From: an uncultured Bacteroidales bacterium
Lineage (GTDB): Bacteria; Bacteroidota; Bacteroidia; Bacteroidales; JAIOZK01
DNA: 64,000 bases
Direction of reading: 5' to 3'
Assembly: GCA_964468645.1 (NCBI GenBank)
Contig: CAYXUU010000029.1
Location: 14,084 to 78,083 of the forward strand
Both the position numbers and the translations under genes were made by a program. The notes below the pieces were generated by a model. The model searched no databases and had not been told where the DNA came from. It worked only from the letters and a program-made list of their open reading frames with translations. Positions 1,745 to 19,396 of this stretch are shown piece after piece. Each line of letters opens with the position of its first letter. Position 1 is the first letter of the stretch.

Positions 1745-2057
1745 TTGTGCATTTTTTAATTGATTTGCTAATTTACACAATCATTACTCAATTTCAAAAT
1801 AGTGCAGCAAATTGATCAATGTGAATCAGGCCTTAACTTTTTTTACCAGTATTCAAAATAAAGACCAATCTTTAAAGATTGCATCTGGAAGTTGTCCTAA
1901 TTATTTGTTAAGACAATCCGTATCGATACCAGGTGAACGAATGATTAAATAAGCTTATATTTGATCATCGATTGATCTGTCGGATTATTTACCGGATCAG
2001 GGTATCAAAGCATTCGTTACGTATTAGAAAATAACCAATAAGCATTCTTACTTCATA

Positions 2058-3626
2058 ATGAATCTCAATAAGATAAAGTTTTTAAGTATAATCAGTTCAT
2101 TACTATTGGTATGGTTTTTTTCGATATACCCCATATTGGTGCTCTATGCACACAATGCTGGTGAAGTGTTGCTTCATCAGGTGGTAATACCATTGATTTC
2201 GAGCCTGATATTCTATACGGCTATCTATGGTTTGTGGTGGTTAATATTAAAAAATAATTTTAGAGCTGGTTTTGCAACCATCTTTGCAATATTGATTTTC
2301 TGGAATTATGATTTAATTTTTACAGGGCTTTTAAAAGTAATTGATTTGAGGCACTGGCATTTAATGCCATTATTATTAGTTATCTATTCGTTCCTGGTTT
2401 ATATGCTCATAAGAATCAAACATCAAAAATTGCTTCATAATTTAAATACTATTTTCCTGGTGCCAATAACCATACTCATCATGATTAATGTATTTAATAT
2501 ACTGCGTGTTGAGATTGTGAAACCTGATCCCAAAGTAAACAAAAAAAAGTTAGATCAGTTAAATCAGGATGATAATCCTAACAGGGATTATCCTGACATA
2601 TTTCTAATTATTCTGGATGAATATGCCAGTTTCAGCACAATCTATGAGGAATGGGATTATGATAATAGTGGTTTTGCTCAATACTTAAGGGAAAGCGGCT
2701 TTTTTATTGCGGGAAACAGCGATTGGAGATATTATAGAACAATCTGGAATATCTGCAGTCTGCTGAACCTGGATTATGTAACCGGACCGGTCGAACAAAA
2801 TGAATTCCTGGAATACTGCTGTGGCAATCCCTCGGTGCTGGATAATGCAACAAGGGAAATGTTACAGAAAGTAAATAAAAAAGATCTGTTTGAAAGGATT
2901 GCCAGCAACAAGCTTACTGGTTATTTGAAAGATTATGGATATAATATCATAGTTTTGGAAGCATTCAAATCAATGACCTTCAATTATACCGATTATTTCA
3001 TGGGTTTTGATGACTTCAGGAGAAACGATCTGGTATCTGAATTTACTGATCCATTTTCCCAGGAACTGATAAGAGGCTCTATCCTGTATCCCTTCGTAGA
3101 TCTATCAATTGATTACCGGATTAATAAAATAAAGTATAACGGAACAAAATCCATTTTAAATTATTTAAAATCAAAGGCGGCCGACCTGGATAGCCCCAAA
3201 TTTGTTCTTGCACATATACTCTGTCCACACCACCCTCTTGTATTTGACCTTGAGGGGAATTTCGTACCTGATGCGCCAAATCCAAGAGATGAGCGTATCG
3301 GAAAGCTAATGCCTGAAAATAACGATGTTAATCACAGATATCTGGATCAGTATATTTATATGACCAACCAGATTAAAGACATTATTAATTCTATTATGAT
3401 ACAATCAACAGAGAAACCTGTTATCATGATTCAGAGTGATCATTCCCCAAGGCCACAGGCGTTTTATTTGAAAGATAAAACCAATGCGTTTAGTGTATTG
3501 AATGTGGTATATTTTCCGGATGGGGATTATAAATATATGTATGATAGTATTGCTCCCATTAATATAATGAGAATATTATTAAATAAATACTTCGATACAA
3601 AATACGAATTATTGGATGACAGATAG
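2058..3626 (+). CDS. membrane-anchored alkaline-phosphatase-superfamily enzyme (sulfatase/LtaS/EptA-like phosphotransferase), paralog A
   Basis: Roughly five N-terminal TM helices are followed by a soluble domain carrying LDEYASF, HILCPHHPLVFD (compare the H-x-x-G-S-H-G-P-x-Y motif of EptA/LtaS) and MIQSDHSPRP (compare SDHG). Its stop codon is within 1 nt of the ATG of the next gene (positions 3623-3628 by my count). Confidence 0.7.
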   Translation: MNLNKIKFLSIISSLLLVWFFSIYPILVLYAHNAGEVLLHQVVIPLISSLIFYTAIYGLWWLILKNNFRAGFATIFAILIFWNYDLIFTGLLKVIDLRHWHLMPLLLVIYSFLVYMLIRIKHQKLLHNLNTIFLVPITILIMINVFNILRVEIVKPDPKVNKKKLDQLNQDDNPNRDYPDIFLIILDEYASFSTIYEEWDYDNSGFAQYLRESGFFIAGNSDWRYYRTIWNICSLLNLDYVTGPVEQNEFLEYCCGNPSVLDNATREMLQKVNKKDLFERIASNKLTGYLKDYGYNIIVLEAFKSMTFNYTDYFMGFDDFRRNDLVSEFTDPFSQELIRGSILYPFVDLSIDYRINKIKYNGTKSILNYLKSKAADLDSPKFVLAHILCPHHPLVFDLEGNFVPDAPNPRDERIGKLMPENNDVNHRYLDQYIYMTNQIKDIINSIMIQSTEKPVIMIQSDHSPRPQAFYLKDKTNAFSVLNVVYFPDGDYKYMYDSIAPINIMRILLNKYFDTKYELLDDR

Positions 3627-4556
3627 ATGAAGGCAAACAAAATGCTTATTGTTTTTCTTTGTATATTTATATTGTTTGCTACGTATCTGGTTTTTGCAGA
3701 TTATATCTTTCAGGTCTTAATTAAAATGAGCAGAGAAGCAAGATCTGTTAAAAGAGAACTGCCTCAAGAAACTAACAATATAAAATTTCATATTGATAGG
3801 GTAAAGAATGTGATATTAGGATGGAAAGATGCTTTGACAATCCGGGGGTGGGTCTTCAAAGAAAATGTTAAAGAGACGCATAGAGAGGTATATCTGGTGC
3901 TAAAGTCAAAAACAAGCACGCTTATTTTCGATATAGAAGATGATAATAGACAAAGGCGGGATATTTCGTATAACTATAATATTGCCGACGAAATAGATAA
4001 TCATGGATTTGAGTTGAGAATACCCGTTTATAGATTAAGAAAAGGCCCATATAAAATTGGGTTTATAATAGAAGACAAAACAGGGACATATTATACCCTT
4101 TCTGATACAAAATTGAGGATACCTAGAAACACAATTCAGACAAAGCAAATAAGTCAGAGATCATTATCAGAATTCATATCAAAACAGGTAAGCCTGGATT
4201 TAAAAGAACCTACAAAAGAAGTCGATTATCATTTCGACGAAGTCAATATTTCGGAGAAACACCTTATTGTCAGCGGGTGGGGATTTATTAAAGGCATGGA
4301 TACAGGTTCACTTAAAACGTATATTTCATTAAAGAAAGACGAAAATGTAATTGTATATAATGTTCAGGTGAATAAGAGGAAGGATATAACCAAGCGGTTT
4401 AAGGATTTCGGCAGAAACCTGAATTTATCAGGTTTCTCATCCCAAATCCCCATTGAGAATTTGGATAGCGGAAATTATCAATTAGGATTATACTTAATTA
4501 AGGGTGATCACATAGGAATTATTTATGCGGACCAACATGTAAATGTTAGCAAATAA
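3627..4556 (+). CDS. membrane-anchored protein with two internal ~140-aa repeats, unknown function
   Basis: A single N-terminal TM helix (MLIVFLCIFILFATYLVFA) is followed by duplicated modules (HIDRVKNVILGWKDALTIRGWVF... and HFDEVNISEKHLIVSGWGFIKG...). It is translationally coupled to the upstream gene. Confidence 0.55.
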   Translation: MKANKMLIVFLCIFILFATYLVFADYIFQVLIKMSREARSVKRELPQETNNIKFHIDRVKNVILGWKDALTIRGWVFKENVKETHREVYLVLKSKTSTLIFDIEDDNRQRRDISYNYNIADEIDNHGFELRIPVYRLRKGPYKIGFIIEDKTGTYYTLSDTKLRIPRNTIQTKQISQRSLSEFISKQVSLDLKEPTKEVDYHFDEVNISEKHLIVSGWGFIKGMDTGSLKTYISLKKDENVIVYNVQVNKRKDITKRFKDFGRNLNLSGFSSQIPIENLDSGNYQLGLYLIKGDHIGIIYADQHVNVSK

Positions 4557-4655
4557 ATTGTAAACTTTTCAAAAGTACAATCAGTTTTTGTAAGAAATAT
4601 CAGTAGTATTGTAAATTCGCTGCTGCTCTAAACCTGAATAAGAATTATTAATGCA

Positions 4656-6131
4656 ATGGGTAAAAGTAAACTTTTAAAAAAGTTAGTTCCAATTATCACT
4701 GTATGGCTATTTGCAATTTATCCCGTTTTGGCTTTATATGCACACAATGCTGAAGAGCTTGTTTTACAGCAAGCTACACTACCCTTAGGCTTTTCCCTGA
4801 TATTCTCAACAATTCTATTTGGTCTTTGGGGAATCATACTTAAGAACAATTATAAGGCAAGTTTGGTGACTATTATATTGTTATTGATTTTTTGGTATTA
4901 CGCATTAATTTACAGGGGTATTACGCAATTTAACACTTTTAAGCACTGGCATCTAATACCGTTATTATTTTTAATGTATTTCATTTTTGTCTATTTTATA
5001 GCAAAGGCCAGGCGACAAAAGGTGCTAAAAAAATTAAACACAATCTTATTAGCACCAATTACGCTATTGATAGTTTTTAATGTTATAACCATCTTACCAA
5101 TAGAATTTAAAAAGATTGAAACCTTAAGAAATAATGGTAAGACTAATATCACGGCATCTGAAATAAATGCTGCTAAAGATCATCCAGATATTTATCTGAT
5201 CGTATTAGATGAATATGCCAGCTTTAAGTCAATAAATGAAGAGTGGGATTATACCAACAGTGAGTTTGAAGAATTTCTAAGAGAAAAAGGCTTTTATGTT
5301 GCTGAAGATAGTGAAACCCGGTTTAATAAGACTAAAAAAGCACTGACCTCTTTAATGAATCTCAAATATATTGATGAAAGTTATACAGAGTTAGAATTAA
5401 ATCAGAGATATCATAACAATCATATATTTGATTTATTTGATAAAATGGGGTATGGCGTTGTTTTTCTCGATGGACGTGGTATTGCTGGGCAAACAGCAAT
5501 TTCAGAAAACATTTTACATGTCTATTATACAGGCATAGATTCTACAAACAGTCCCGTGATTAATGAATTCAGCGATCTGGTTTTTAAACAATCCATGTTA
5601 AAGCCCCTCCTCAAATACCTGAGGGATGAAAATACAAATCTTTACTATAATTTGAATAATTATATCTTCAATTACATAAGTAATTTCCCATCAATAGTAA
5701 ATGAAAATGAGCAGCCAACTTTCCTGTATGCTTATATAATGTGTCCGCATTTGCCATATGTTTTTGACCGGAAGGGTAATTTTACTGAGAATCCTACAAA
5801 CTATTGGGAGTATAAATCATTAGATAAAGATCTTCTTAAAAAATTATATTTAGAGCAATATATCCATGTTACAACAAGGATGACAGATATTATAAATGAA
5901 ATATTAGAAACTTCGGAAAATGAACCTATTATAATTTTGCTATCGGATCATGGCCCAAGAGGAAACTCAGGTATGAAAAATTCAAATCAGGCTTTCAGGG
6001 TTATGAATGCGATATATTTTCCCGACCGCAACTATCATAATCTATATTCAAATATTGCACCGGTTAACACGTTGAGAGCATTGTTAAACAAGTACTTTGG
6101 CGGAAACTTTAAAATGTTGGAGGATAGATAG
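4656..6131 (+). CDS. membrane-anchored alkaline-phosphatase-superfamily enzyme (sulfatase/LtaS/EptA-like), paralog B
   Basis: Its N-terminus is clearly homologous to that of the 2058..3626 protein (YAHNAEELVLQQ versus YAHNAGEVLLHQ, and HWHLIPLL versus HWHLMPLL). It shares the same catalytic-domain motifs: LDEYASF, YIMCPHLPYVFD and LLSDHGPRGN. Confidence 0.7.
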   Translation: MGKSKLLKKLVPIITVWLFAIYPVLALYAHNAEELVLQQATLPLGFSLIFSTILFGLWGIILKNNYKASLVTIILLLIFWYYALIYRGITQFNTFKHWHLIPLLFLMYFIFVYFIAKARRQKVLKKLNTILLAPITLLIVFNVITILPIEFKKIETLRNNGKTNITASEINAAKDHPDIYLIVLDEYASFKSINEEWDYTNSEFEEFLREKGFYVAEDSETRFNKTKKALTSLMNLKYIDESYTELELNQRYHNNHIFDLFDKMGYGVVFLDGRGIAGQTAISENILHVYYTGIDSTNSPVINEFSDLVFKQSMLKPLLKYLRDENTNLYYNLNNYIFNYISNFPSIVNENEQPTFLYAYIMCPHLPYVFDRKGNFTENPTNYWEYKSLDKDLLKKLYLEQYIHVTTRMTDIINEILETSENEPIIILLSDHGPRGNSGMKNSNQAFRVMNAIYFPDRNYHNLYSNIAPVNTLRALLNKYFGGNFKMLEDR

Positions 6132-6142
6132 TCTAAATTAAT

Positions 6143-7594
6143 TTGGAAGTACCGAAAACAATTATAAATTTTTATACTAATTTGCGAACAATCATTAAAT
6201 CAGAAACTGGAAATTCAATGATTAATAATAAAGTCTTAGAAAGTTCTTTCCGTGACCCAAGCGGATTTCTCTTTGATGAAGACGGGATACTATTGCGTCA
6301 AGTAAATAAATGTTATCAAAAAGACTATGACTTTTTAATGAATTCTTCACTTTATGACAAATTAACAAGTGAAGGATTGTTGATTACTCATAAGGAGCAT
6401 GATAGCCATAAAGGTTTCAAACCAGATTGTTACAAAATTATCGAACCTGACCTGATTAATTTTATATCCTACCCATATGAGTGGTCGTTCAGCCAATTAA
6501 AAGATGCGGCAATAACAACACTGATGATTCAAAAAACAGCCTTACAACATGGAATGATATTAAAAGACAGCAGTGCCTACAATATTCAGTTTCAAAACGG
6601 AAGACCCATATTTATTGATACGCTCTCATTTGAAATATACCATGATGGCCAACCATGGGGTGCTTACAGGCAATTCTGCCAGCATTTTTTAGCCCCACTC
6701 GCATTGATGAGCCATACCGATATCCGGTTAAACCAGATGATGAAAATTTATCTGGATGGCATTCCTCTTGATCTGGCCAGTAAATTATTACCCTTTAAAA
6801 CGAAAATCAGGATCTCGTTATTAATGCATCTTCATTTGCATACAGGTGCACAAAAAAAGTACCGGAACAAAGGATCTGCTTCGAAAAACACGAAAATTTC
6901 CCGTTCTAATTTGTTTGCATTGATACAAAGTTTATTATCTGCTGTAAGACGCCTGAGATTGAAGGGCCAGAATACTGAATGGGGCGATTATTATTCTTTT
7001 ACCAATTACGCTGATCAATCATTTACACATAAAAAAGAAATTATTACCGGATTTATCAAAGCTATAAATCCTGAAACGATCTGGGACCTGGGTGCAAACA
7101 CAGGCGAGTTCACTCAAATTGGCAGTCAATATGGAATACAATGCGTCGCATTTGATATTGATCCGTTAGCTGTTGATTCCCATTATACCTATATCAGAAA
7201 CCAGCAAATTGAAAATATTTTACCGTTGGTCATGGATTTAACAAATCCGAGTCCATCAATAGGTTGGAACAACAAAGAAAGAATGGGATTTTTGCAGAGG
7301 CCTTTACCCGATACCGTTCTTGCACTTGCATTGATCCATCATCTGGCCATTTCAAACAATCTGCCATTGAACAAGATTGCCAGCTTCCTGAGTGAATTGA
7401 GCGATAATCTGATCATTGAATTTGTACCAAAGACAGATTCACAGGTGCAAAAACTACTCGAGTCACGAAAAGATATCTTTATAAATTACAATGAAGAAAC
7501 ATTTGTCCGGGATTTCGAATTGTATTTTAAGATCAGGGCAAAAGAAACGATTGCTGAATCTAACAGGGTAATTTATTGGATGACTAGAAAATAA
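6143..7594 (+). CDS. two-domain protein: an N-terminal protein-kinase-like (PKL) fold candidate fused to a C-terminal class I SAM-dependent methyltransferase of FkbM type
   Basis: The C-terminal region has the SAM-binding motif I, WDLGANTGEFTQIGSQYGIQCVAFDIDP (GANxG is typical of FkbM-family methyltransferases). The N-terminal region has a catalytic-loop-like segment MILKDSSAYNIQFQNGRPIFIDTLSF, where D-x4-N is followed about 12 residues later by I-D-T (DFG-like), spacing that matches kinase-like folds. The kinase assignment is an inference. Confidence 0.55.
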   Translation: MEVPKTIINFYTNLRTIIKSETGNSMINNKVLESSFRDPSGFLFDEDGILLRQVNKCYQKDYDFLMNSSLYDKLTSEGLLITHKEHDSHKGFKPDCYKIIEPDLINFISYPYEWSFSQLKDAAITTLMIQKTALQHGMILKDSSAYNIQFQNGRPIFIDTLSFEIYHDGQPWGAYRQFCQHFLAPLALMSHTDIRLNQMMKIYLDGIPLDLASKLLPFKTKIRISLLMHLHLHTGAQKKYRNKGSASKNTKISRSNLFALIQSLLSAVRRLRLKGQNTEWGDYYSFTNYADQSFTHKKEIITGFIKAINPETIWDLGANTGEFTQIGSQYGIQCVAFDIDPLAVDSHYTYIRNQQIENILPLVMDLTNPSPSIGWNNKERMGFLQRPLPDTVLALALIHHLAISNNLPLNKIASFLSELSDNLIIEFVPKTDSQVQKLLESRKDIFINYNEETFVRDFELYFKIRAKETIAESNRVIYWMTRK

Positions 7595-7693
7595 ATATTA
7601 AATGGATAATATTATTTCATTTGGATTTTAAGTAAATTAAAAAGTATATTTTTGAATATGAAATTGAAATCACTGCAAATCAAAAGTTAAACG

Positions 7694-7924
7694 ATGAATA
7701 TACTCCACGCTATTATTTCGGTAACATTTCTTTCTTCATTACCTGCCATTTTACTCGCCTATATTGACCCGGGAACCGGCAGCATAATAATTCAGGCAAT
7801 TATTGCGACAGTTGTTGGCGCTGGCGTTGCCCTGGCGCTATTCAGAGACAAAGTATTCAGGTTATTCGGGATAAAAAGGCCGGATAAACCCGATGATGAA
7901 TCTGAGCATATTGAAGACAAATAG
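7694..7924 (+). CDS. small hydrophobic protein (76 aa), unknown function
   Basis: ORF has an ATG start, two predicted TM segments and an acidic C-terminal tail. There is no homology signal I can name. Confidence 0.35.
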   Translation: MNILHAIISVTFLSSLPAILLAYIDPGTGSIIIQAIIATVVGAGVALALFRDKVFRLFGIKRPDKPDDESEHIEDK

Positions 7925-10266: not shown

Positions 10267-10449
10267 ATGAAAGGCATAAATTACGTAACAAATGATAAGG
10301 GTGAAAAAGTAGCTGTTATTATTGACTTAAAAGAGCATGATAAGGCTATCAATCAATATATTGAAGATCTTGAAGATTTAATTGATTTGGAATTAAGAAA
10401 GGATGAGCAATCAATTCCCTGGAATGAAGCTAAGAAACGGCTTTCTTAA
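10267..10449 (+). CDS. small acidic protein (60 aa); possible antitoxin-like partner
   Basis: It is a short, charged, probably helical protein immediately upstream of an ORF whose N-terminus looks RelE/ParE-like. There is no definitive motif. Confidence 0.3.
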   Translation: MKGINYVTNDKGEKVAVIIDLKEHDKAINQYIEDLEDLIDLELRKDEQSIPWNEAKKRLS

Positions 10450-10464
10450 TTTTCAATTTTAGAT

Positions 10465-10665
10465 TTGATGGAATATCGTATTAATATTAAAAAGTCTGCA
10501 CTCAAAGAGTTACAAAGATGGGATACAAACCAAGCAACCGTAGAATTGAAAAAAGACTTTCGGCGAAATATCCAGAGAGCGATGTTAATTGGAAAGAGGC
10601 TTTGTCAAAAGAAAAAGCATCTAAAACAGGAGATGTTTTTCATTATACATTTGAAGTTCCAGTAA
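10465..10665 (+). CDS. 66-aa ORF with a RelE/ParE/YoeB-like N-terminus (MMEYRINIKKSALKELQRW); possibly a truncated or degenerate toxin
   Basis: The N-terminal 20 residues follow the M-x-Y-x-I-x-F-x-x-x-A-x-K-x-L pattern of RelE/ParE toxins, but the rest lacks the C-terminal catalytic region. It overlaps a 136-aa ORF in another frame (10518..10928). Confidence 0.25.
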   Translation: MMEYRINIKKSALKELQRWDTNQATVELKKDFRRNIQRAMLIGKRLCQKKKHLKQEMFFIIHLKFQ

Positions 10666-10928
10666 AATGGGTATTTAGATATGATTGTAAAGATTCTATT
10701 CCAAAACTCGAAAATCAAAATTTGAGGCTACAATGGGCATCACAAAATCCAAGGATTAGCCAAGATTTACATAAATTGGATATATCTCCAGAAAAGTTTA
10801 ATTGGTGGATGCGCAGTATTTATGTGAAAAACAAAGACGGATCAAAAACACCTGCTCTTTGGGTTAAAGGGTATTGCACAATGCTTTGTGTATTAAAACT
10901 ATTACCTCAAAATAATGAGAATATATAA
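10518..10928 (+). CDS. hypothetical protein (136 aa) in an alternative frame, overlapping the 66-aa ORF
   Basis: It is a long open frame with an ATG start and no recognisable motif. Either this ORF or the 66-aa ORF is likely real, but probably not both. Confidence 0.25.
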   Translation: MGYKPSNRRIEKRLSAKYPESDVNWKEALSKEKASKTGDVFHYTFEVPVKWVFRYDCKDSIPKLENQNLRLQWASQNPRISQDLHKLDISPEKFNWWMRSIYVKNKDGSKTPALWVKGYCTMLCVLKLLPQNNENI

Positions 10929-14592: not shown

Positions 14593-16944
14593 ATGGGGAA
14601 CCATCTAATACTTATTATTATCACTCTAATAACAACAACCTTATCAGGTTTTGCACAAAACGATGGAAAACTCGAAGGAATTGCATATAACATGGAAACC
14701 GGTTTGCCGGTAAACAATGTTGACGTAGTTGTTTCACCAGGGGGATCGGGTACAGTTACAGACGACAATGGAAACTTTTCAATTCCGCAACTAGAACCTG
14801 GAATATACCGGGTATTCTTTACCCATATCGGATTTCAGGATCTTGAAAAAAGTGTAAGGATCACCGCTAATCAAACCAGTAGTGTCAACATTAATCTTAT
14901 CCCAAAAACAGAACAGCTTAAGGAGGTTGTTATTTCTGAACAGGCCGAAGATATCATTAAGGCCCCATACATTATTGAAAGCATACACGAACTTGAGATA
15001 CAGCAACACCCGGCAAGGGATATCGGTGATTACCTGAGAAATACACCTAACCTTTCCGGTATCAGGAAGGGGGGCGCCGGTATTGATCCGGTAGTCAGGG
15101 GATTCAAATTTAAACAGCTTAATGTAATTGTTAACGGTGCAATCAAAATTGAAGGAGGATGTCCAAACCGTATGGATCCTGCTGTTTCCCATATCGATAT
15201 TGATGATATTAAGAAAATTGAAGTTTACAAAGGCCCGTTTGCACTGAGGTACGGCCCGAATTTCGGCGGTATTATTAATCTTAGCACCAACCATCCTTTC
15301 ACTGAAAAAGAATTCAGTACAAAGATTGCGGCAGCAACGGGTTTTGAAAGTAACTGGAATGGGAATAAAGAACGGCTTGGGATTACAGCCGGAAATAACA
15401 GGGTTTACCTTAAGTTGTCAGGGAATCATAAAAAATATGGTGATTATAAAGCGGGCAATGATGTCACGATGAATGCGGCCTTTACGAAGTATAATTATAC
15501 AGCCTTACTCGGTGTTTCCCCGGCCGATAATCACCATCTGACGATTTCTTTCGACCGGTCGTACGGAAGGAATTTAAGTTTTCCTGCCCTACCCATGGAC
15601 GAACGCTCCGACGATACACAGATATCTTCATTCGAATATAATGGAATACTTTCCGGAAAGTACATAAAAAGTATTAAAGCTAAAATGTATAACTCCGATG
15701 TCCACCATATTATGGACAATAAAGAAAGGCCATTCTCAGATACTGTAGTGGCCGTTTCTGATATCAAAGCAAGAAATACCGGCGGAAGGGCTGAAACACA
15801 GATCGGGATAAAAGGCCATGAAATTTTCATCGGGGTAGATTATGAGAATATTTATAAGGACGGACAGCGTACCAAGAGTTTTATTATGCAGCCTAACCTG
15901 CCCGTTAAGATTGAAAGTTTATGGAATAATGCCAGGATTAATAACACCGGATTTTTTACATCCTGGAATAAAAACACCGATAAGCTTGACTTGTTAGCTG
16001 CCGCACGGATCGATCTGAACAATGCAAGCAGTGGCATCCTCCAATCATTGAACATGAAAGGGGAAACAATGTATTCTAATAACAACACCGATTCGAAATA
16101 TACAAACCTTAGCATCAGTGCAGGGGTATTGGCCCACCTGCTTCATAATCTTGATATTGGTGTATCAATAGGAAGAGGGGTAAGAAGCCCTGACATGACA
16201 GAGCGCTTTATTATCCTGTTGCCTGTTGGATACGACAGGTTTGATTATCTGGGTAATCCCCAGCTTAAACCTGAGAATAATCATGAGATAGATATCAAGG
16301 TAGAATATCTGACAAAAAGAGCCTGCGTATTTAACATCAGCGGCTTCTTTTCTTATGTAACCGATTATATTACAGGTAAAGAAGTGCCGCCATCCGAAGT
16401 CAAGCCACAAACAAAAGATGTCCTGGGGGTAAAGGAATTTATCAATATTGACCATGCCTATTTGTATGGATTCGAATTTGTTTATCAATCAGGTTTATTC
16501 GGCAATTTCAGCTTATATGCAGATGTAGCTGCTACATATGGTATCAATCCATCGGCTGTTAAGTATTTAATTGAGAATGGTCAGGTGGTTGGAGAGGAGA
16601 TCGTAAAAAATGATCCGCTTCCGGAAATTCCACCGCTGGAATCAAATATTGCTTTTACATATCGATTATTCAATAACAGGCTAATTCCGGAAATTTCAAT
16701 CAGGATGGTAGCCGCTCAGAAGAAACTATCGGAATCATACTATGAAGTAGAAACCCCGGGAATTGCCACTTTGAATTTTTCCCTGCAATACAACTTCAAC
16801 GATTATCTTAAACTTAACGGAGGTATTAACAATATCTTTAATAAAGGATATTACGAACATTTGAACAGGATTATTATCGGAAGTAATACACCATATTATG
16901 AGCCTGGAAGAATCTTTTATGTAAACCTTATTTTTAACATCTGA
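14593..16944 (+). CDS. TonB-dependent receptor (N-terminal carboxypeptidase-regulatory-like domain, plug, 22-strand barrel). A candidate MbnT-like transporter given its neighbours.
   Basis: It has a signal peptide, a CarbopepD_reg-like segment (GIAYNMETGLPVNNVDVVVSPGG...GNFSI), a plug motif region (DPVVRGF...NVIVNGAIKIEGG) and a long beta-barrel rich in alternating aromatic residues. Length is 783 aa. Confidence 0.85.
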   Translation: MGNHLILIIITLITTTLSGFAQNDGKLEGIAYNMETGLPVNNVDVVVSPGGSGTVTDDNGNFSIPQLEPGIYRVFFTHIGFQDLEKSVRITANQTSSVNINLIPKTEQLKEVVISEQAEDIIKAPYIIESIHELEIQQHPARDIGDYLRNTPNLSGIRKGGAGIDPVVRGFKFKQLNVIVNGAIKIEGGCPNRMDPAVSHIDIDDIKKIEVYKGPFALRYGPNFGGIINLSTNHPFTEKEFSTKIAAATGFESNWNGNKERLGITAGNNRVYLKLSGNHKKYGDYKAGNDVTMNAAFTKYNYTALLGVSPADNHHLTISFDRSYGRNLSFPALPMDERSDDTQISSFEYNGILSGKYIKSIKAKMYNSDVHHIMDNKERPFSDTVVAVSDIKARNTGGRAETQIGIKGHEIFIGVDYENIYKDGQRTKSFIMQPNLPVKIESLWNNARINNTGFFTSWNKNTDKLDLLAAARIDLNNASSGILQSLNMKGETMYSNNNTDSKYTNLSISAGVLAHLLHNLDIGVSIGRGVRSPDMTERFIILLPVGYDRFDYLGNPQLKPENNHEIDIKVEYLTKRACVFNISGFFSYVTDYITGKEVPPSEVKPQTKDVLGVKEFINIDHAYLYGFEFVYQSGLFGNFSLYADVAATYGINPSAVKYLIENGQVVGEEIVKNDPLPEIPPLESNIAFTYRLFNNRLIPEISIRMVAAQKKLSESYYEVETPGIATLNFSLQYNFNDYLKLNGGINNIFNKGYYEHLNRIIIGSNTPYYEPGRIFYVNLIFNI

Positions 16945-17339
16945 TGATAAGCGGAAAAATGAAACATTTACAACTAATAAAAATTACTGTAATGACACTT
17001 ATGGTATTGTTTATTCATAATTCATGCGATATCAATGAGGAAGAAAGGTCTGTCACCTACAGGATATCAAATAATCATTCGGGATTTGATGTGACCTATC
17101 GAATTGCTGATGGAAGCCTCAACAAAGCAACAATAGATATTTCAAGCAAAGAAGATATCTGGACCTATAATTTCACAGGAACTGAAGGTGATATAGTTTA
17201 TGTATCGGCAAATTATAAGGATATCAATACGGGGATCAGGATTCAGATACTTCTAGATGGAAAGACTTTTAAACAGGGATCGAGTTTGTATGATACGTTG
17301 AATTTTGTTACCGTTTCGGGGACAATTCCATACAAATAA
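16944..17339 (+). CDS. small lipoprotein (131 aa) in the TBDR operon
   Basis: ATGA start/stop overlap with the receptor gene. It contains VMTLMVLFIHNSC, a lipobox-like segment. Confidence 0.5.
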   Translation: MISGKMKHLQLIKITVMTLMVLFIHNSCDINEEERSVTYRISNNHSGFDVTYRIADGSLNKATIDISSKEDIWTYNFTGTEGDIVYVSANYKDINTGIRIQILLDGKTFKQGSSLYDTLNFVTVSGTIPYK

Positions 17340-17360
17340 TATTGGCTACTTAACTTTCGT

Positions 17361-18182
17361 TTGATTTATATGAAATATATTTTGAATAAAACTTCAGTAT
17401 TAAAATTGGTAATACCGGTATTCATTCTCGTTATTGCTGTCATTTCATGCACTGAAACCAACAAACCGGAAACAGAACAACAGCATATCGTTATCCATTT
17501 CAAACACATGAACAATAATTCGGATCTGCAGTTTGACACCATGATCTATATCAATGAAGCCGGAAATAAATACCTGGTCAACGAGATACAATATTTCATT
17601 TCGGATATTAAGCTATATCAATCAAATGGCACTGTTTTTCTGATCGATGATTGGAAGGACATTCATTATGTCGATACTGATATTCCATCAACCCATACCT
17701 GGACTGTTTTTGATGAAATCCCTGCCGGGAACTATGATTCCATAGGATTTACTTTTGGAATAAATCAGGAGAAGAATCAGTCTTTTATGTTTGTCAATCC
17801 CCCGGAACGTGACATGTTCTGGCCGGAGTTTCTGGGTGGTGGATATCATTATATGAAATTAAATGGTAAATGGCTTGACACAAACAATTTCATAGCTCCT
17901 TTTGATTTTCATATGGGAATAGGCCAGATCTACCATTCCTACCCCGATTCTATTACCGGGTTTGTGCATAATGATTTTGAAGTAAGCCTGCCTAATTCAT
18001 CTTTTACCCTTCATGTGGGTGAAACAAAAGAGTTTGATCTAATAATGAATATCCAAAACTGGTTTAACGATCCGCATACTTATAACCATAATGTATGGGG
18101 CGGTTATATTATGCAAAACCAGGATGCAATGAAACTGGCTAGTGAGAATGGATATGATGTATTTACTTTAGAAATAAAATGA
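17361..18182 (+). CDS. periplasmic MbnP-like protein (putative copper-binding partner of a di-haem peroxidase)
   Basis: A 273-aa secreted lipoprotein (VIAVISC). It sits immediately upstream of, and overlaps by 4 nt, a di-haem cytochrome c peroxidase gene and downstream of a TonB-dependent receptor. That is the context that defines MbnP/MbnH pairs. Conserved His/Trp-rich segments are present (HYVDTDIPSTHTW, FHMGIGQIYHSY). The family call is contextual. Confidence 0.5.
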   Translation: MIYMKYILNKTSVLKLVIPVFILVIAVISCTETNKPETEQQHIVIHFKHMNNNSDLQFDTMIYINEAGNKYLVNEIQYFISDIKLYQSNGTVFLIDDWKDIHYVDTDIPSTHTWTVFDEIPAGNYDSIGFTFGINQEKNQSFMFVNPPERDMFWPEFLGGGYHYMKLNGKWLDTNNFIAPFDFHMGIGQIYHSYPDSITGFVHNDFEVSLPNSSFTLHVGETKEFDLIMNIQNWFNDPHTYNHNVWGGYIMQNQDAMKLASENGYDVFTLEIK

Positions 18183-19396
18183 AATCTCTACATTCTTACA
18201 TACAGCAGATATTATTCTCAGTGACACTCCGTGAAAAAGATTCTCGAAGTTCACATTACAGAACTTTTGCCTTTTTCCTTTTTCCTTTTGCCCTGTTAGT
18301 ATTCTCCTGCCAGGATAACAATGATGACGACCTACCTTACCAGCCAACACCTTACGAAATTGATATCCCCTTTGGTTTTCCTACTATCCTAAATATCCCT
18401 GATGACAACCCAATGACTGTTGAAGGAGTTGAACTTGGACGATATCTGTTTTATGATGGAAGATTATCAGGCCGTGCACACCCTGACTCTTTGATGAGTT
18501 GTGCCACCTGTCATATACAGGCCAATTCATTTGAATGTGGGATTAACCATCCCGAATTTTCAGGGGGATTCCCTCACGGGATAACCGGTAAGCAAACACC
18601 ACATGTTATGTTACCCCTGATTAACCTGGTTTGGAATAGCAGCGGTTATTTGTGGAATGGATTTATTTACAGGGATAACCCACTTCCACAATTCAGGAAT
18701 ATTGAAGACCTGGTATGGATGGGTGTGGTAGCCGAGCATGAGATGAATAGTGATACCAATCGTGCCAAAGCAATGATACAAAGCATACCCGGATACCCGG
18801 AATTATTTATGAAAGCTTTTGGATCAGGTACAGTGACGATGAAGAATATGGGTAAAGCCGTTGCACAATTCATCAGGACATTTATTTCAGCGGACTCAAA
18901 ATTTGATAAGTATCTACGAGGTGAGGTACAATTATCACAATCAGAACTAAACGGATTTGTCCTGTTTACCACTGAGGAAGGTGCTGATTGCTTCCATTGT
19001 CATGGTGGATCAGGCAATCCCCTGTTTACGACCAATTTATACTATAATAATGGGAAGGATACTATATTTGATGATCCGCGTGACAGATATAACATTTCCG
19101 GTGATCCCCAGGATAAAGGTGCATACAAAGCAACTACATTAAGGAATATTGAACTAACAGGCCCATTTATGCATGACGGGCGTTTTGGTACCCTGGAAGA
19201 AGTTATTGACTTCTACTCCCATCATCTGTTATGGTCCCCTTATATCGATCCATTGATGCACCATATTGCAAATGGAGGTGTACAGCTCACACCGAATGAA
19301 AAGGCAGATCTGACTGCCTTTATAAAGACGCTTAAAGATGAGGAATTTTTAACCAATCCCGCATTCGGGCCTCCTGATAAGTTTCCGGATGAGTAA
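18179..19396 (+). CDS. di-haem cytochrome c peroxidase family protein (MauG/CCP/MbnH-like)
   Basis: It has two CxxCH haem motifs (CATCH, CFHCH) about 165 aa apart and the family signature TLRNIELTGPFMHDG...TLEEVIDFY. It also has a lipoprotein-type signal. Confidence 0.8.
   Translation: MKSLHSYIQQILFSVTLREKDSRSSHYRTFAFFLFPFALLVFSCQDNNDDDLPYQPTPYEIDIPFGFPTILNIPDDNPMTVEGVELGRYLFYDGRLSGRAHPDSLMSCATCHIQANSFECGINHPEFSGGFPHGITGKQTPHVMLPLINLVWNSSGYLWNGFIYRDNPLPQFRNIEDLVWMGVVAEHEMNSDTNRAKAMIQSIPGYPELFMKAFGSGTVTMKNMGKAVAQFIRTFISADSKFDKYLRGEVQLSQSELNGFVLFTTEEGADCFHCHGGSGNPLFTTNLYYNNGKDTIFDDPRDRYNISGDPQDKGAYKATTLRNIELTGPFMHDGRFGTLEEVIDFYSHHLLWSPYIDPLMHHIANGGVQLTPNEKADLTAFIKTLKDEEFLTNPAFGPPDKFPDE

Follow-up and report, generated by a model that had tools for sequence, protein, structure and literature searches.

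The window, by which we mean the whole 64,000-nucleotide stretch of DNA that was analysed, carries five co-directional genes, all on the + strand of a low-GC island, which we call A, R, B, M and S. A sequence-only reading had described five open reading frames here; all five were recovered in place, with lengths of 522, 309, 491, 483 and 76 aa. The genes, together with two short sequence elements, are as follows.

1956..1963, + strand: promoter candidate TATATTTG, which fits the Bacteroidota -7 promoter consensus TAnnTTTG and lies some 100 nt upstream of A
2058..3626, + strand: gene A, 522 aa, a membrane enzyme related to NoeB ("A-like" subfamily)
3627..4556, + strand: gene R, two-repeat membrane-anchored protein of an unannotated family, 309 aa
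4656..6131, + strand: gene B, 491 aa, a membrane enzyme related to NoeB ("B-like" subfamily)
6218..7594, + strand: gene M, 458 aa, homologous to NoeA; its open reading frame reaches upstream to a TTG at 6143
7647..7654, + strand: second TAnnTTTG match TATTTTTG, 47 nt upstream of gene S
7694..7924, + strand: gene S, membrane peptide, 76 aa

Because the TTG that opens the 483-aa frame is unconserved, and because database homologs of M are about 458 aa long, the ATG at 6218 is the likely start of that gene. The element TATATTTG is the sole TAnnTTTG match in the 277-nt gap upstream of A (such matches occur on this strand at a background of 0.56 per kb) and is a candidate for the operon promoter, judged by motif and position; TATTTTTG is a possible internal promoter upstream of S. 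A scan for sigma-70 promoters and terminators was uninformative on this AT-rich Bacteroidota sequence. Pfam and NCBIfam searches of the window's proteins yielded sub-threshold matches only, a cluster look-up returned neither names nor accessions for them, and no glycan-synthesis genes flank the module within the window.

M is a NoeA-family cytoplasmic enzyme, in which an N-terminal domain with a protein-kinase-like active-site pattern is fused to a class I SAM methyltransferase. It aligns with annotated noeA (tblastn) at 35% identity over residues 7-457, 98% of its length, with an E value of 3e-73. Residues 1-262 are kinase-like and residues from about 265 to 458 form the methyltransferase (WDLGANTGEF, D313); M has no TM segment, and its predicted structure has a pLDDT of 88. 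The fusion had been proposed from the sequence, and it is supported: R27, D117, N122 and D134 are invariant in 49 M-family sequences, and the same family assignment has been published (PMC9758233). The spacing D117-x4-N122-x11-D134 is PKA-like, and strands 113-115, 123-126 and 129-132 flank the pattern in the predicted structure. We assigned the PKA equivalents (an Arg for K72; D166, N171 and D184) after the same paper, in which the R38/D/N/D assignment of Lani_1194 agrees with the pattern in M, and FFAS and Phyre matched Lani_1194 to OspG and ADCK3 (PMC9758233). Sequence searches gave M no match to kinases in Pfam or the PDB, and single-sequence phmmer against the PDB returned nothing useful. 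When a profile of the N-domain was compared with 1.84 billion representatives, the 150 matches listed included only close 460-aa orthologs and none that bridged to a named kinase family. Two fold searches with the full-length, uncropped model listed methyltransferases throughout, and the closest solved relatives of M include the phosphate O-methyltransferases WbdD, BCDIN3D and MePCE. The earlier label "FkbM-type" should be dropped in favor of a generic class I SAM enzyme, as the Pfam matches among 49 family members are to Methyltransf_23, 12, 11 and 25, FtsJ and PrmA, with FkbM absent.

A and B both belong to the NoeB family and are paralogs of long standing. They align end to end at 37% identity (E 3e-115), and the motifs that the sequence-only reading quoted from them (YAHNA, HWHL.PLL, LDEYASF, CPH.P.VFD and SDH.PR) are all found in both. 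Each has five N-terminal TM helices followed by an extracytoplasmic domain with the alpha/beta fold of the alkaline-phosphatase (AP) superfamily, the arrangement of LtaS and EptA; the basic residues in successive loops of B (3, 0, 2, 1 and 6 from the N-terminus) alternate, which places the N-terminus inside and the catalytic domain outside. A keeps D187/E188, T228, H386, H391 and D461/H462, and B keeps D185/E186, T226, H365 and D431/H432. In a 42-member alignment, numbered by B, the metal-ligand columns are conserved in 42 (D185), 27 (E186), 42 (D431) and 37 (H432) members, H365 is near-invariant, and the nucleophile column (T226 in B, T228 in A) holds 40 Thr and 2 Ser. D185 sits at the end of beta1, D431/H432 directly follow a strand, and T226 is the N-terminus of helix 226-235; B has Y360 at a site where 41 of the 42 relatives have His. 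PF00884 (Sulfatase) is matched by 31 of the 42 members, A and B themselves falling below the threshold. The AP-superfamily assignment made from the sequence is therefore upheld by fold, metal ligands, nucleophile and five-helix architecture. The implied recent tandem duplication is not, because the A-like and B-like groups are old, separately conserved subfamilies, each with its own orthologs. A single-sequence phmmer search of B against the PDB gave nothing useful. A profile of the A/B family aligned with the pSymA ORF downstream of noeA with an hhalign probability of 98.2% (E 5e-14), all four motifs being in register, and BLASTP matched B to an M-adjacent "LTA synthase family protein" of Singulisphaera (E 1e-37).

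R, an additional protein with two repeats, faces outward and is translationally coupled to A, of which it is a rare, unannotated partner. It consists of an N-terminal TM anchor and two homologous domains of about 130 aa each; its halves are 24% identical over 120 aa (E 6e-10), and the invariant pattern GW...R.D...GF...G occurs twice in the family alignment, in keeping with the repeats first seen in the sequence. The ATG of R begins at 3627, immediately after the TAG stop of A (3624-3626). The same abutment recurs at loci L002, L005/L006, L007, L093 and L094, there is a 1-nt gap in L009, and R always adjoins an A-type gene, lying directly downstream of one except in L012. The suggestion that R is membrane-anchored and coupled to A is supported. 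R has no Pfam, NCBIfam or PDB match, and a profile of the family reached only chance level against the PDB (lipocalin, E 0.1) and Pfam (DUF7028, E 0.05). Separately, long A-type proteins (720-855 aa) carry C-terminal extensions; any kinship of R to these is undetectable (hhalign probability <1%).

S, which had been listed simply as a membrane peptide, is a real conserved component and belongs to a family found beside NoeA homologs. Family members are about 75 aa long with the motif AY[LI]DPG[TS]GS, and 58 of them were aligned by this motif from M loci. In S a hydrophobic N-terminal segment, AYIDPGTGS and a TM helix are followed by a basic and acidic cytoplasmic tail, of which the charge is kept across the family and the sequence is otherwise poorly conserved. 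[quoted passage not shown] At one locus (L010) it is built into a 398-aa protein as the N-terminal anchor, a use that fits an anchor role for S; that protein is unrelated to the M N-domain and has no PDB relative.

To describe the module across genomes we used 77 M loci taken from species genomes. S is found no more than 2 genes from M at 50 of the 77, an A-type protein no more than 3 genes away at 50, and the commonest gene order is S-M-A (26 loci); in a published survey, S and M were paired in 65% of 816 neighbourhoods (PMC9758233). Of 56 M loci with enough flanking sequence on either side, about 17 lack an A-type neighbour, so M is not strictly dependent on a nearby A. The S-M-A triad is shared by Sinorhizobium and Singulisphaera and is found across many bacterial phyla and some archaea. 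M has matches in at least 597 species genomes, including Legionella and archaeal MAGs, and the N-domain profile finds 4,754 clusters at 50% identity; the family is thus very large. Elsewhere the neighbours include Wzm/Wzt transporters with Wzt_C, GT2 and RgpF/GT1 glycosyltransferases, epimerases, a cytidylyltransferase, a KpsC/S-like protein and YidC-like insertases. The conserved unit is S, M and A, with R and the YidC-like partners optional. The genes are syntenic in many genomes, far beyond chance, and the metal and nucleophile residues are present; the two findings by which the sequence-only reading said its proposal would fail, loss of those residues and of synteny, are thus both absent.

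The genes noeA and noeB were first found in rhizobial nodulation operons and have been known since 1995 as host-range nodulation genes. We are confident that the present locus is a Bacteroidota S-NoeA-NoeB module, comprising a NoeA-family M, the NoeB paralogs A and B, the peptide S and the extra protein R. The sequence-only reading did not recognise the module as a named system, but M is homologous to NoeA, A and B are related to NoeB, and a bioinformatic description of 2022 gives the triad as Lani_1193/1194/1195 of Legionella anisa, in which the kinase-like and methyltransferase architecture and the AP-fold neighbour agree with M and A/B (PMC9758233). In the nodL-noeA-noeB operon of pSymA (Sinorhizobium meliloti/medicae), NoeA is a full-length homolog of M, and an S-type ORF with AYLDPGTGS precedes noeA. 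The order here, A-R-B-M-S, differs from the S-M-A of both systems; they have one NoeB and no R, whereas the present locus has two NoeB paralogs and R. It also lacks a nodL/OafA acetyltransferase, and M is only 35% identical to Sinorhizobium NoeA. What is new at this locus is the pair of old NoeB paralogs and their partner R.

Three better-studied systems offer comparisons. WbdD of E. coli O9a (PDB 4ax8, 4azs), a bifunctional kinase/methyltransferase that caps O-antigen with methyl phosphate (PMC3482155), resembles M in joining a kinase-like domain and a class I SAM methyltransferase in one soluble polypeptide. Its methyltransferase domain is among the closest structural matches of M, a likeness limited to that domain, and some M loci adjoin Wzm/Wzt transporters with Wzt_C. 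However, no sequence similarity between M and WbdD is detectable, the domain order is reversed (methyltransferase then kinase in WbdD), M lacks the C-terminal coiled coil, and WbdD has no S or NoeB partner. A and B are built like EptA, LtaS, GacH and BcsG, with five TM helices and an outward AP-superfamily domain, but they share <12% sequence identity with EptA/MCR-1/EptC (pEtN), LtaS/LtaP and GacH (glycerol phosphate) and BcsG (pEtN-cellulose), and the polar TM motifs YAHNA and HWHL.PLL are specific to their family. The bcsEFG operon of E. coli follows the same logic, combining a soluble protein of the cytoplasm (BcsE), a tiny peptide that spans the membrane once and has a cytosolic tail (BcsF), and an AP-fold pEtN transferase in the membrane (BcsG). 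In that system BcsF acts as the tether of cytosolic BcsE, and the two share their operon with BcsG (PMC11470070). S is not homologous to BcsF, nor M to BcsE; BcsE senses c-di-GMP and is not an enzyme pair, and BcsF makes no contact with BcsG.

Module identity and mechanism taken together make an explanation that we consider somewhat better than an even bet. The mechanism by itself is put forward tentatively, as somewhat less likely than not: working from both membrane faces, the module would decorate a glycan or glycolipid that is exported. At the cytoplasmic face, M would phosphorylate a hydroxyl and then methylate the new phosphate to give a methyl-phosphate ester, by analogy with the chemistry of WbdD in reversed domain order. 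S may serve as a single-span anchor, N-out/C-in, tethering soluble M at the membrane as BcsF does BcsE. At the outer face, A and B would use Thr228/Thr226 and a bound metal to form a covalent phospho-enzyme and transfer a phospho-containing group, from a phospholipid head group or an exported intermediate, onto the same polymer, with R perhaps providing substrate binding. The glycan-pathway neighbours seen elsewhere and the precedents of WbdD and BcsEFG favor this mechanism; the absence of flanking glycan-synthesis genes in the window, the M loci that lack an A-type neighbour, the failure of sequence searches to match M to kinases and Y360 in B speak against it. The pathway offered by the sequence-only reading, in which phosphotransfer, a small-molecule kinase and O-methylation would act on a glycan or lipid, is a reasonable idea.

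The strongest competitor, though an unlikely one, is that A and B are outward-facing hydrolases (phosphodiesterases, phosphatases or sulfatases) that would trim or remove a phospho- or sulfo-group, for example by uncapping the group installed by M. The formylglycine motif C/S-x-P-x-R has no match in A or B, for which reason we rejected an S1 sulfatase identity; the nucleophile is Thr; and sulfate genes were seen in only one lineage. Lipid-donor transferases typically show the five TM helices with a periplasmic domain, as well as the kind of alignment obtained here with EptA and MCR-1 over their full length.

Phospholipid head groups are the donors for EptA, LtaS and OpgB, a precedent for a slightly less probable reading in which the module acts on membrane lipids, M producing at the inner leaflet either a modified head group or a phospho-methyl donor linked to lipid, and A/B passing that head group to another lipid or envelope component. 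M is 51-69% identical over many bacterial phyla and archaeal MAGs among the matches listed, a breadth that points to a universal substrate and away from strain-specific glycans, and the module here stands alone, without glycan genes. Against this, the recurring neighbours elsewhere are the Wzt_C ABC transporters, glycosyltransferases, cytidylyltransferase and KpsC/S-like protein, a CBM96 is fused to one A-family member, and lipid-synthesis genes do not recur.

It is improbable that S is substrate rather than adaptor, with M phosphorylating or methylating its tail or A modifying the Thr/Ser of DPG[TS]GS, in which case the module would serve to modify a small protein. S and M are the tightest pair in both surveys, and the invariant motif offers hydroxyl residues on the side of the A catalytic domain; but the tail accessible to M is poorly conserved beyond charge, the motif serves as an anchor in L010, and neither proteases and exporters nor other genes for peptide maturation recur.

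More speculative again is a trans-envelope phosphodiester relay, in which M would place methyl-phosphate on a lipid-linked glycan and, after export, the Thr of a NoeB-type enzyme would attack the methyl phosphodiester, expelling methanol and joining the glycan-phosphate to an acceptor in the envelope that R or fused CBM domains would hold. If true, this would provide ATP-independent phosphodiester anchors outside the cytoplasm, common to bacteria and some archaea. Fortuitous adjacency of functionally unrelated genes can be dismissed on the synteny data, as the same families occur together in dozens of phylogenetically distant genomes and the A stop and R start abut at at least six independent loci.

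On the noeA/noeB problem as a whole, the present locus and its relatives give testable statements: the methyltransferase of NoeA is structurally nearest to phosphate O-methyltransferases, NoeB has the architecture of an outward-facing Thr-nucleophile transferase, and the genes that usually adjoin the module belong to glycan pathways of the ABC-transporter type. Working out one member would allow thousands of genes to be annotated, and could explain a determinant of symbiosis host range.

The five co-directional genes proposed in the sequence-only reading were borne out by the positions of the ORFs in the window, and we refer to them by the following letters:

2058-3626, forward strand: A, an ORF of 522 aa, NoeB-like membrane enzyme of the alkaline-phosphatase (AP) superfamily fold
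3627-4556, forward strand: R, an ORF of 309 aa, membrane-anchored protein with two repeats
4656-6131, forward strand: B, an ORF of 491 aa, paralog of A
6143-7594, forward strand: an ORF of 483 aa that contains M, a NoeA homolog, with a likely start at ATG 6218
7694-7924, forward strand: S, an ORF of 76 aa, small membrane peptide

The ATG of R directly follows the TAG stop of A, consistent with the translational coupling suggested for this pair. Because the 483-aa ORF begins with an unconserved TTG, and because database homologs of M are approximately 458 aa in length, M most likely starts at ATG 6218.

The module was initially not recognized as a named system. That assessment did not hold, although the module itself proved real and coherent and most of its parts had been read correctly: it is very probably of the noeA/noeB type. 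In a tblastn search of plasmids, M was found to be a full-length homolog of Sinorhizobium NoeA (35% identity, 98% coverage, E 3e-73). In S. medicae, pSymA carries, in this order, nodL, an 82-aa ORF that has no name and contains AHAYLDPGTGSMLVQ, noeA, and an AP-like ORF. This last ORF matches the A/B family profile at an hhalign probability of 98.2%, and its four catalytic motifs all line up with those of the profile. Plasmid pSINAC01 of Singulisphaera acidiphila DSM 18658 is similar: a DPGSGS peptide of 60 aa precedes an M homolog (53% identical), and next comes an "LTA synthase family protein" with the YAHN motif of the A/B family. Tractable hosts with this triad also include S. meliloti and Legionella anisa. 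Ardourel et al. are said to have defined nodL-noeA-noeB as host-range genes in 1995.

A survey of the Legionella pan-kinome described Lani_1194/NoeA as a novel kinase-like domain, in which Arg replaces PKA K72 while the equivalents of D166, N171 and D184 are conserved (PMC9758233). In that study, 94% of approximately 2,000 homologs had a methyltransferase fused to this domain, and homologs were also present in archaea; of 816 neighbourhoods, 65% contained Lani_1193, a hypothetical protein of approximately 65 aa, and 38% contained Lani_1195, which has an AP fold (HHpred to EptA, 3e-27) (PMC9758233). Our literature search found no later characterization of a noeA/noeB-type unit. What is known of such modules is genetic and bioinformatic in nature, not biochemical.

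Two features of the pSymA locus (CP140906.1) concern its annotation. The S-type ORF (L091 6721-6969) overlaps the start of noeA and is annotated only as "hypothetical". In the NoeB region (L091 8384-10044), for which the PLSDB table lists no CDS, the sequence reads as a pair of overlapping ORFs in different frames; in this strain it may be frameshifted or a pseudogene, or a CDS may have been missed in annotation.

The alignment of A with B is full-length (37% identity, E 3e-115), and every motif quoted in support of their paralogy is present. As single sequences they yield a minimal Pfam signal (B against Sulfatase, E 7e-4, sub-threshold); PF00884 is matched by 31 of 42 aligned family members and the 720-855 aa A-type partners exceed the Sulfatase threshold. 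The family profile matches sulfatases and EptA in the PDB, and in the AlphaFold model of B (pLDDT 86) an alpha/beta domain comes after five long helices at the N-terminus. The catalytic residues of the AP superfamily are conserved at their canonical positions in both proteins. In the 42-member alignment, D185 of B, at the end of beta1, is invariant; T226, at a helix N-terminus, is T in 40 members and S in 2; H365 is near-invariant; and D431 (invariant) and H432 (near-invariant) follow a strand. Equivalent residues occur in paralog A. Because the C/S-x-P-x-R motif is absent from both A and B, they are not formylglycine sulfatases. The predicted topology places the N-terminus inside and the catalytic domain outside, as expected from the alternation of loop charges.

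There are two distinct subfamilies, A-like (approximately 525 aa) and B-like (approximately 490 aa), each with its own orthologs, and another contig carries members of both, arranged B-A-R; this pattern indicates that the duplication is old. Residue 360 of B (window 5733-5735) is Tyr, where 41 of 42 relatives, including paralog A and the remaining aligned B-like proteins, have His (YAHIMxPH to YAYIMCPH), and the activity of B may be altered or reduced as a result. Elsewhere in the A family, P0075, from an ENA metagenome, has a C-terminal CBM96 carbohydrate-binding module (E 6e-22) and P0079 has TPR repeats; judged from such sequences, accessory binding domains are a recurring theme.

The C-terminal half of M had been read as an FkbM-type methyltransferase; it instead matches generic class I methyltransferase models. 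Searches with M identified at least 8,000 candidate homologs at E <=0.001, of which the 120 listed are 57-80% identical, and their source annotations are "PrmA" or "class I SAM-dependent methyltransferase". The N-terminal 262 residues have no Pfam or PDB sequence match, and fold searches with the whole model return lists dominated by the methyltransferase domain. R27, D117, N122 and D134 are invariant in the N-domain, and the spacing of the last three, with their flanking strands, is that of a protein-kinase catalytic loop and DFG aspartate, as had been noticed from the spacing.

After a hydrophobic, signal-peptide-like start, S has the motif A-Y-[LI]-D-P-G-[TS]-G-S and then a TM helix, followed by a basic stretch (K-V-F/Y-W-x-K/R-I-K) and finally an acidic tail. 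The positive-inside rule predicts that the motif faces outward and the tail the cytoplasm. In Flaviaesturariibacter amylovorans (L010 8161-12217, BAABGY010000002.1), a variant arrangement places the S motif, MTILYIDPGSGALL, at the very start of a 398-aa protein, fused to an unassigned domain; the gene lies between those of a TehB-like methyltransferase (209 aa) and a YidC::AP-like fusion (P0103, 738 aa). That domain shows no detectable kinship with the M N-domain or with any PDB entry. This arrangement fits a role for S as an anchor, with YidC-type insertion.

R consists of two homologous halves (E 6e-10), in agreement with the internal repeats reported. R has no Pfam or PDB match and only about 20 detectable relatives, which always adjoin an A-type gene, including in Aminicenantes, Chloroflexota and Thermincola loci; R lies directly downstream of that gene except in one locus (L012), where it is upstream. 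A kinship with the C-terminal extensions of long A-types was considered and rejected, as comparison found them unrelated.

The M profile matches at least 597 species genomes, and the M N-domain profile matches 4,754 clusters at 50% identity. The best 80 matches, all 51-69% identical to M, include Bacteroidales, Chloroflexota, Aminicenantes, Omnitrophota, Planctomycetota, Clostridia, Proteobacteria, CPR and Chlamydiota, as well as archaeal MAGs of Nitrosopumilaceae, Methanobacteriota and Methanomicrobia. Using our own ORF calling and HMMs, we counted synteny at 77 M loci. At 50 of them S is found no farther than two genes from M; an A-type protein is found no farther than three genes away, also at 50 (39 of the 56 loci where both flanks had room). 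S-M-A is the most frequent order, and Bacteroidales have A-(R)-M-S. The module genes are syntenic in many genomes, and chance adjacency is excluded. Also found repeatedly near M are GT2, epimerases, Wzt bearing a Wzt_C domain, a cytidylyltransferase, ManC, a KpsC/S-like protein and YidC-like insertases.

Individual loci vary. In L094 (2436-9964) and L009 (1-7254), B-like/R or A/R/S/M genes directly follow Wzm, Wzt (with Wzt_C) and large proteins of several domains (L094 has Methyltransf_24/RgpF/GT1, and L009 has a double methyltransferase), a layout that resembles ABC-transporter-dependent O-antigen or rhamnan clusters. One Bacteroidota lineage (L005 31-3764, L006 2977-6740) has genes for sulfate activation immediately upstream of A-R-M-S-YidC, encoding an APS kinase, a member of the PAPS_reduct family and a GTP_EFTU/APS-kinase fusion; the module may be connected with a sulfated glycan, or these genes may be neighbours by chance. 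In Anaerolineae MAGs (L016, L030, L034, L039-L041), M is flanked by topA, in some cases together with S, on one side and by a conserved TM protein of 330-360 aa, of unassigned family, on the other, and has no A-type gene nearby; at other M loci, M is instead followed by a KpsC/S-like protein of approximately 537 aa (PF05159).

The module is a compositional island, with a GC content of 33.6% versus 38.9% in the remaining window, the second lowest among 117 same-size sliding windows. This low GC, together with identity of M above 50% across phyla and archaea, points to horizontal transfer. The flanking genes, which are those of a Bacteroidota genome, encode T9SS cargo proteins, an M1 peptidase, a prolyl oligopeptidase, and a TonB receptor with MbnP and a MauG-like peroxidase; no glycan-synthesis genes were found among them in the window. 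At 14593-19396, the TonB-dependent receptor, MbnP-family protein and MauG-like di-haem cytochrome c peroxidase are consecutive, suggesting a cluster for metal (copper?) uptake. Small ORFs of 60, 66 and 136 aa (10267-10928) occupy an AT-rich stretch that separates the M1 peptidase from a T9SS propeller protein; the first of them looks by eye like a small antitoxin-like protein.

We propose a mechanism for the module tentatively, as a whole somewhat short of probable. At the cytoplasmic face, M would form a methyl-phosphate ester, by analogy with WbdD (PMC3482155) and in view of the proteins structurally nearest to its methyltransferase domain. S would tether M to the membrane, as the analogy with BcsF and BcsE of the bcsEFG operon suggests (PMC11470070); alternatively, S may itself be the substrate. 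A and B would transfer a phospho-group outside via a Thr-phosphoenzyme, as in EptA, LtaS and GacH, unless they act as hydrolases rather than transferases. R would bind the polymer, and a rival reading has a lipid, not a glycan, as the target.

What the window adds to the noeA/noeB type is a variant architecture, with two old NoeB paralogs, a coupled R protein and a rearranged gene order. Together with its relatives, this module provides a sharper, testable hypothesis.
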